A stretch of 13,925 nucleotides of DNA from IMG/VR virus record IMGVR_UViG_2684623077_000006; one strand, given 5' to 3'. This DNA is from a virus (Duplodnaviria > Heunggongvirae > Uroviricota > Caudoviricetes). Below are positions 2,447 to 2,495 of the stretch, in pieces. The position numbers and the translations under genes were made by a program. The stretch's first letter is position 1. Every line of letters begins with the position of its first letter. The notes beneath the pieces were generated by a model. The model was not told the origin of the DNA. It was given only the letters and a program-made list of their open reading frames with translations, and did not search any database.

Positions 2447-2495
2447 AGTGTATTTCACCAGTGAGTAAATTAAAAAGCAAAGGTGAAATACACCT
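2447..2495. promoter_or_regulatory. Candidate operator: 12-bp perfect inverted repeat (gtgtatttcacc / ggtgaaatacac) with 22-bp spacer, between divergent starts
   Basis: Arms at 2448-2459 and 2482-2493; lies between the minus-strand RHH-like gene (start 2381) and the plus-strand Icd-like gene (start 2575). Confidence 0.4.

Follow-up and report, generated by a model that had tools for sequence, protein, structure and literature searches.

In the immI region of phage P22, the ribbon-helix-helix (RHH) repressors Mnt and Arc act at the divergent Pant and Pmnt promoters. Here we analyze a comparable arrangement in a stretch of 13,925 nucleotides of viral DNA (IMG/VR record IMGVR_UViG_2684623077_000006, hereafter the window), which is an Escherichia coli phage satellite of the capsid-forming phage-inducible chromosomal island (cf-PICI) type. 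In this satellite, a minus-strand gene for a 59-aa protein of the YlcI/YnfO family (here termed ylcI-like) diverges from a plus-strand operon carrying Icd-like genes, a C4 antisense RNA and a primase gene, and the region between them holds a perfect 12-bp inverted repeat. Comparison of this region across relatives suggests that the arms of the repeat are probably O2 and O3, two of three operators in a divergent promoter region, at which the satellite-encoded YlcI-like protein would act as an RHH repressor.

The likeness to P22 Mnt and Arc lies in the way the arrangement works, since the similarity of these proteins to the YlcI-like protein is marginal (pairwise hhalign E 0.005). P22 uses one operator of 17 or 21 bp, whereas the satellite presents three sites of 13 bp, and the P22 switch controls arc-ant in a phage, whereas that of the satellite would control c4-icd-primase. 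The immI region of P1 and P7 (c4 antisense RNA, icd and ant, with the C1 repressor acting at Op51) has in common with the satellite operon the C4 RNA, its a1/b1 targets and Icd-like genes. The satellite operon differs in having two Icd-like genes and a primase gene downstream in place of ant, and its promoter is apparently controlled by an RHH protein at GTG-N5-CAC sites rather than by C1; a search of the window for P1 C1 operators returned no match. In the stl-str region of Staphylococcus aureus pathogenicity islands (SaPIs) and Gram-positive PICIs, the Stl (Rpr) repressor is encoded divergently from the replication/packaging operon and acts at intergenic sites, as proposed here. Stl, however, is a helix-turn-helix protein of large size whose gene runs in the direction of int, while the satellite protein is a predicted RHH protein of 59 aa encoded opposite to int, and no homology between the two is evident, judging by protein size and predicted fold. 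Omega of the inc18 plasmids and CopG of pMV158 are also RHH proteins that bind short repeats, but their repeat unit and sequence differ from those of the satellite, and they serve plasmid copy number and partition instead of a satellite switch.

RHH repressor-operator switches are hence a known type, and what the satellite module bears on is the unsettled question of the satellite repressor. The Gram-negative PICIs were defined in a 2018 study that asked whether AlpA might be their repressor; AlpA proved to be an activator, and whether a repressor exists was left unclear (PMC6092414). The DNA target of AlpA in these elements is not described in that study or in a later one on cf-PICIs (bioRxiv 10.1101/2022.09.08.507074). 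The module described here sits in EcCICFT073, the prototype Gram-negative PICI and the model element of the former study, which makes the repressor question testable in an existing system.

Inverted repeat, 13-bp sites and divergent promoters

The two arms of the repeat, GTGTATTTCACC (2448-2459) and GGTGAAATACAC (2482-2493), are perfect complements over 12 bp with 22 nt between them, and are located where the ylcI-like gene on the minus strand diverges from the Icd-like gene on the plus strand (2575-2778). A preliminary description of the window had pointed out this repeat between divergent starts and deemed it unlikely to arise by chance. Its coordinates and complementarity were verified, and the chance origin is indeed improbable: when the 190-bp intergenic region was simulated 5000 times with a first-order Markov model, no perfect inverted repeat of at least 12 bp arose and 11-bp repeats had a frequency of 0.0004, and only 0.08 such repeats of at least 12 bp are expected in the whole 13.9-kb window. 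Both arms are also internally quasi-palindromic, reading AGTG-TATTT-CACC (2447-2459) and GGTG-AAATA-CACC (2482-2494), and conform to a 13-bp consensus, N-GTG-N5-CAC-N, of which a third copy (O1) is present closer to the ylcI-like gene. Neither the internal symmetry of the arms nor the third copy figured in the preliminary description. The functional unit is the 13-bp site in three copies, and not the 12+12 palindrome. The features of the region are as follows.

2202..2381, minus strand: ylcI-like gene, 59 aa, YlcI/YnfO family, ATG at 2381..2379; proposed binder of O1-O3
2402..2414: O1, GGTGTATGTCAGT, degenerate third copy over the -10 (TATACT) and +1 of the ylcI-like promoter
2412..2417, minus strand: -10 TATACT of the ylcI-like promoter, predicted from conservation
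2443..2448, plus strand: -35 TTGAAG of the icd-c4-primase promoter, predicted from conservation
2447..2459: O2 (left arm), AGTGTATTTCACC, sharing 2 nt with the end of the -35 and occupying the -35/-10 spacer
2466..2471, plus strand: -10 TAAATT of the icd-c4-primase promoter, predicted, 17-nt spacer, start near 2478
2482..2494: O3 (right arm), GGTGAAATACACC, inverted copy of O2, at about +3 to +16 from the predicted start
2505..2538, plus strand: leader stem-loop, followed by TCTAACCAC (2538-2546), between O3 and the Icd-like start codon

Upstream of the ylcI-like ATG, an AGGAG motif is found at 2394..2390 on the minus strand. A simple sigma-70 scan found neither promoter, and both were recovered through conservation in a set of 189 loci gathered as relatives of the YlcI-like protein. 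These were drawn from 23 Enterobacterales reference genomes, 80 metagenome contigs and 80 IMG/VR contigs, with 4 further loci picked afterwards for unusual strand sequences, and span Escherichia, Salmonella, Yersinia, Xenorhabdus, Edwardsiella and other genera, besides the metagenomes and IMG/VR. Among 119 distinct intergenic sequences, a TTGnnn element abuts O2 in 118, and a TAnnnT element follows it at 17-18 nt in 116. On the other strand, the -10 position of the ylcI-like promoter, which has an A/T tract upstream, keeps TATACT, TATATT or TATAAT across relatives.

Nearly all of the 189 loci carry the three N-GTG-N5-CAC-N copies at fixed offsets from the ylcI ATG, with O1 about 23 nt upstream of it and O2 at 67-69 nt. 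The O1-O2 distance is 45-46 bp in nearly all loci and 41 bp in two loci of the T-A-R class (classes are named here after residues 12, 14 and 16 of the protein), where no O1 stands at the usual position and one additional copy precedes O2. Because of the bases that O1 shares with the -10, it always has CAGT or CAAT, and never CACC, at its end. The O2-O3 distance is 35 bp in the window and either 22-26 or 35-36 bp across classes, and whether O3 is an inverted or a direct copy of O2 also depends on the class; in the short-spacing classes (22-26 bp), O3 covers the -10/+1 of the icd-c4-primase promoter. Cooperative binding to O2 and O3 on the same face of the helix was considered and found to be unsupported by spacings of 22, 23, 25, 26, 35 or 36 bp. 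In these short-spacing classes (for instance at 7742-7780 of locus L192), an additional inverted repeat, CACCTTG-N7-CAAGGTG, begins inside the 3' end of O3 and would fall at the 5' end of the operon transcript; it is lacking in the 35-bp class of the window, where AAGGTG...CACCT flanks O3 itself instead.

Conservation of the arms in related islands had been put forward in the preliminary description as a way of checking the candidate operator, and its absence as a sign against it. In an alignment of 73 distinct intergenic sequences of the window class, the arms are at least 95% conserved, and the spacer between them is variable except for the TA of the -10, which is itself at least 95% conserved. 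Conserved arms bracketing a conserved TTGnnn-17/18-TAnnnT promoter across a variable spacer support the operator reading, and the repeated sites overlap core promoter elements and are conserved above background, as repressor operators would be. The suggestion that the repeat is well placed to control one or both promoters also holds, with O1 on the ylcI promoter and O2 and O3 on that of the icd operon. Elsewhere within 1.5 kb on either side, the class-specific core was found in just 11 of 188 loci and at no consistent place, such as near alpA, so that the YlcI-like regulon appears to be local.

A perfect inverted repeat may also act as a nucleic-acid structure in which the arms pair with each other, be it a DNA cruciform or an RNA hairpin serving in attenuation, termination or processing. 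The arms are capable of forming a 12-bp stem, the RNA of 2440-2500 folds at -17.2 kcal/mol (z = -3.75), and a terminator scan reported a small minus-strand hairpin inside the right arm. In five triad classes (A-K-R, Q-S-R, Q-N-R (SQQLNA), K-E-R and T-A-R), however, O2 and O3 are in direct orientation and cannot pair; the loop between the arms varies in length and contains the conserved -10 box; and the start predicted near 2478 lies between the arms, so that either promoter would transcribe one arm only. Searches of Rfam at gathering and permissive thresholds returned only C4, c4-a1b1 and a sub-threshold isrK, all downstream, and no family over the repeat. As judged from these comparisons, the inverted orientation is a feature of the window class and not of the system. 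Furthermore, O1 has no pairing partner, and pairing between the arms is neither conserved nor compensated across relatives, contrary to what a structured RNA would require, all of which makes a structural role for the repeat extremely unlikely.

The leader stem-loop downstream of O3 is conserved. In 21 diverse loci, it shows compensatory double changes at 7 of its 9 pairs, and the TCT(A/T)ACC motif 3' of the stem is nearly invariant. It matches no Rfam family and is predicted to belong to the controlled transcript.

Covariation of the protein strand with the operators

The 189 loci present 20 signatures of the predicted β-strand of the YlcI-like protein and some 12 operator classes. Arg16 and the outer GTG/CAC are invariant throughout, while the inner 5 nt change jointly at all three sites, tracking residues 12 and 14. 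The operator cores associated with each combination of residues 12, 14 and 16 are listed below.

M-T-R (window): GTGTATTTCAC
L-T-R: GTGTGT(A/T)TCAC
S-T-R: GTGTAAGACAC
A-K-R: GTGGGCCACAC
Q-S-R: GTGGTGTTCAC
Q-N-R: GTGC(T/G)ATTCAC
K-Q-R: GTGGA(G/A/C)TCCAC
T-A-R: GTGTTCAACAC
K-E-R: GTGGCTGACAC
Q-V-R: GTGGCATTCAC

The O2 and O3 copies of one locus differ on average by 0.35 of the 11 core positions, and the cores of different signatures by 0.67 when these share the same triad and by 3.24 when their triads differ. Two architectures share the Q-N-R triad, one with inverted sites at 22 bp and one with direct sites at 35 bp, and both have GTGC(T/G)ATTCAC. The association drawn from the first 23 loci predicted correctly for four strand variants fetched later as a test. 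The analysis thus shows three sites whose positions relative to the conserved promoter elements are fixed and whose sequences vary jointly with the β-strand. From this covariation we infer that the YlcI-like protein binds the operators.

The same module, with another specificity, is found in EcCICFT073 (locus L192; E. coli CFT073, NC_004431.1 1380473-1381052), which carries a YlcI-like gene and three operators of the A-K-R class, GGTGGGGGACAGT, CGTGGGCCACACC and AGTGGGCCACACC, arranged as direct repeats; its YlcI-like strand reads SQALKARVPH. The locus tag of this gene, C_RS30120, has a number far above those of its neighbours. The window and EcCICFT073 share 97-100% identity in the flanks but only 33-57% over the segment 2261-2530, which comprises the 5' two-thirds of ylcI and the operators. 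The ylcI-operator module has thus been swapped between elements, moving as a cassette. Of 5426 complete E. coli genomes, 1752 have matches to the 1-kb region containing the module.

Three candidate binders had been named in the preliminary description: the RHH-like protein, AlpA or a helper-phage factor. Only the first of them co-varies with the sites. AlpA, the known activator of the satellite and an excisionase-like helix-turn-helix protein, might bind the sites to switch the operon on. It is encoded about 600 bp away from them, and E. coli PICIs and cf-PICIs need it for their induction (PMC6092414; bioRxiv 10.1101/2022.09.08.507074). Nevertheless, AlpA type is uncoupled from operator class: one AlpA cluster (at least 60% identity) is paired with 8 operator classes, the window class (M-T-R) occurs with 4 AlpA clusters, and cross-tabulation of site sequence against AlpA type reveals no association. 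Locus L002, for example, has operators identical to those of the window and an AlpA that is only 32% identical, whereas L023 has different operators and an AlpA that is 68% identical. Sites over the promoter spacer and the +1 also suit repression rather than activation, and AlpA is very unlikely to be the binder. The first Icd-like protein, which hits PHROG families labelled 'transcriptional repressor', was likewise considered as the binder and rejected, as Icd clusters do not track operator class (one cluster, at 70% identity or more, is paired with 5 operator classes).

The sites might instead be bound by a host or helper-phage protein, or be the iterons of a replication protein, in which case their match with the YlcI strand would reflect linkage only. 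The ylcI gene and the sites are indeed adjacent and would be co-inherited, and GTG-N-CAC motifs look like half-sites known from several bacterial regulators. The occurrence of different classes within one host species, as in the M-T-R window and the A-K-R element of CFT073, makes one host factor or one shared helper factor unlikely. The iteron proposal, in turn, has to accommodate a primase that is 91% identical between the window and EcCICFT073 in spite of their different operator classes, as well as the unrelated replicases of other loci. Among known regulators, the spacing of CRP sites does not match (GTGA-N6-TCAC against GTG-N5-CAC), and the C1 operator of P1 was not matched either, as mentioned above. 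Three sites that change identically also call for a binder that varies with them, and no gene other than ylcI was found to do so, which leaves an external or replicative binder improbable.

Fold of the YlcI-like protein and proposed regulation

The YlcI-like protein belongs to the YlcI/YnfO family NCBIfam NF041551 (64 bits, above the curated cut-off of 30; E 9.6e-18) and is predicted to have an RHH fold. In an AlphaFold2 (AF2) monomer model (confidence score, pLDDT, of 88), residues 11-18 are extended and are followed by helices at 19-28 and 35-58, the strand-helix-helix order of RHH proteins. The G32-E33-S34-T35 turn that precedes helix B is invariant or nearly so and fits the RHH G-x-S/T/N pattern. 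The strand has hydrophobic residues at 13, 15 and 17, an invariant Arg at 16, and polar residues that vary at 12 and 14. A pairwise profile alignment places VRIPHEV in register with LRWPREV of Arc, so that residues 12, 14 and 16 align with Arc Q9, N11 and R13, which are the base-contacting residues of that repressor.

According to the mechanism that we favour, the YlcI-like protein would bind each 13-bp site through its N-terminal β-ribbon, with Arg16 reading GTG/CAC and residues 12 and 14 reading the variable centre. Occupancy of O2, between the -35 and the -10, and of O3, around the +1, would keep RNA polymerase off the icd-c4-primase promoter and thereby silence the early/replication operon of the satellite, while a weaker O1 over the -10/+1 of ylcI, a candidate autoregulatory site, would provide negative autoregulation. 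As with binding, we infer the sign of regulation and the transcription starts, and each site might take up one dimer or two.

Several observations weigh against this interpretation. The YlcI-like protein matches no Pfam family at threshold (RHH_1 was hit by 1 of 30 members, E 0.009) and no PDB sequence, and the best Foldseek E value for it is only 2.6. The ylcI-like promoter has no good -35, and the plus-strand promoter agrees with the consensus at only 8 of 12 positions, a score because of which it was missed by the sigma-70 scan. The O2-O3 spacing varies without keeping helical phase, so that cooperative binding is uncertain. The gap between ylcI and the operators is below 200 bp, and co-inheritance could therefore explain part of the covariation; the concerted change at three sites argues against this without eliminating it. 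Finally, the induction of EcCICFT073 has been attributed to the activator AlpA, and no repressor was found in that element (PMC6092414).

It could also be argued that the YlcI-like protein does bind the sites, but as a local autoregulator without control over the life cycle, in the manner of an orphan antitoxin-like RHH protein. We regard this as improbable too. No toxin partner is conserved, for loci differ in the gene that follows ylcI: the 62-aa open reading frame (ORF) found there in the window gave no tblastn hits in 23 cross-genus loci, and other loci have AntA or BRO-N genes on the other strand. Moreover, the best-conserved sites, O2 and O3, cover the promoter of the icd operon and not that of ylcI.

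Beyond repression at this locus, we put forward, more tentatively, that the YlcI-like RHH protein and O1-O2-O3 may constitute the master repressor switch of Gram-negative PICIs and cf-PICIs, a counterpart of Stl, with at least 12 mutually non-cross-reacting classes set mainly by residues 12 and 14. If so, co-resident satellites would have separate controls, and induction would need either a helper-encoded anti-repressor or AlpA-driven read-through from alpA, across ylcI in antisense, into the operon. The set of some 12 operator classes against residues 12 and 14 is in addition a natural data set for the β-ribbon recognition code, and the series could supply orthogonal repressor-operator pairs.

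Regarding the distribution of the family, no match to the YlcI-like protein was found by tblastn in 50,697 phage records, and the subfamily hence appears to be confined to satellites; PHROGs lists the family as of unknown function. The YlcI of E. coli K-12 (locus L189; DLP12, 580251-580445) adjoins a lambda-like cos/nohD and has an RHH-like IRFP strand, and inspection of its locus revealed no triple GTG-N5-CAC sites. It is probably a different functional subfamily from the satellite proteins. Literature searches returned no paper describing the function of YlcI/YnfO or DUF3950, and nothing relevant on RHH regulators in PICIs or on icd/c4 in satellites.

Other genes and features of the satellite

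The plus-strand operon comprises, in this order, an Icd-like gene, the c4 a1/b1 targets, the C4 RNA, a second Icd-like gene, DUF4222, the D5-type primase and a single-stranded DNA-binding protein (SSB), and HK97-type head and terminase genes are also encoded in the window. The annotation of a near-identical element of E. coli SaT040, which adjoins cspD, agrees with this. Besides those listed above, the following features were assigned.

1-1239: integrase
1649-1858: AlpA
2575-2778, plus strand: first Icd-like gene (NCBIfam phage_ICD_like)
2809-2858, plus strand: c4 a1/b1 targets (Rfam c4-a1b1, 46.8 bits)
2926-3013, plus strand: C4 antisense RNA (Rfam C4, 72.3 bits)
3008-3454: second Icd-like gene, 3' of the C4 RNA
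3756-5504, plus strand: D5-type primase (Pfam D5_N and others)

The 62-aa ORF downstream of ylcI, at 1971-2159 on the minus strand, is arginine-rich (phrog_21027), and its CFT073 version is shorter (57 aa), near-identical and annotated as hypothetical. In the SaT040 element, the PGAP annotation calls a plus-strand Icd-like pseudogene fragment that corresponds to 1921-2200 of the window. Just past the alpA stop, at 1887-1906 on the minus strand, a terminator-like GC-rich hairpin is followed by a T-run. The ylcI transcript, which converges with alpA, might terminate here.

A perfect inverted repeat with 14-bp arms, TTTCCCGCCTGTTA (7153-7166) and TAACAGGCGGGAAA (7178-7191), and an 11-nt loop precedes the cluster of capsid genes. 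It is the sole other perfect inverted repeat of at least 12 bp in the window and could be a late-operon regulatory site. Lastly, at 7004-7024 on the plus strand, a hairpin formed by CCAGCCCTGG and TTAACCAGGGC around a single T is followed by a T-run and is likely to be the intrinsic terminator of the upstream gene, which ends at 6997.
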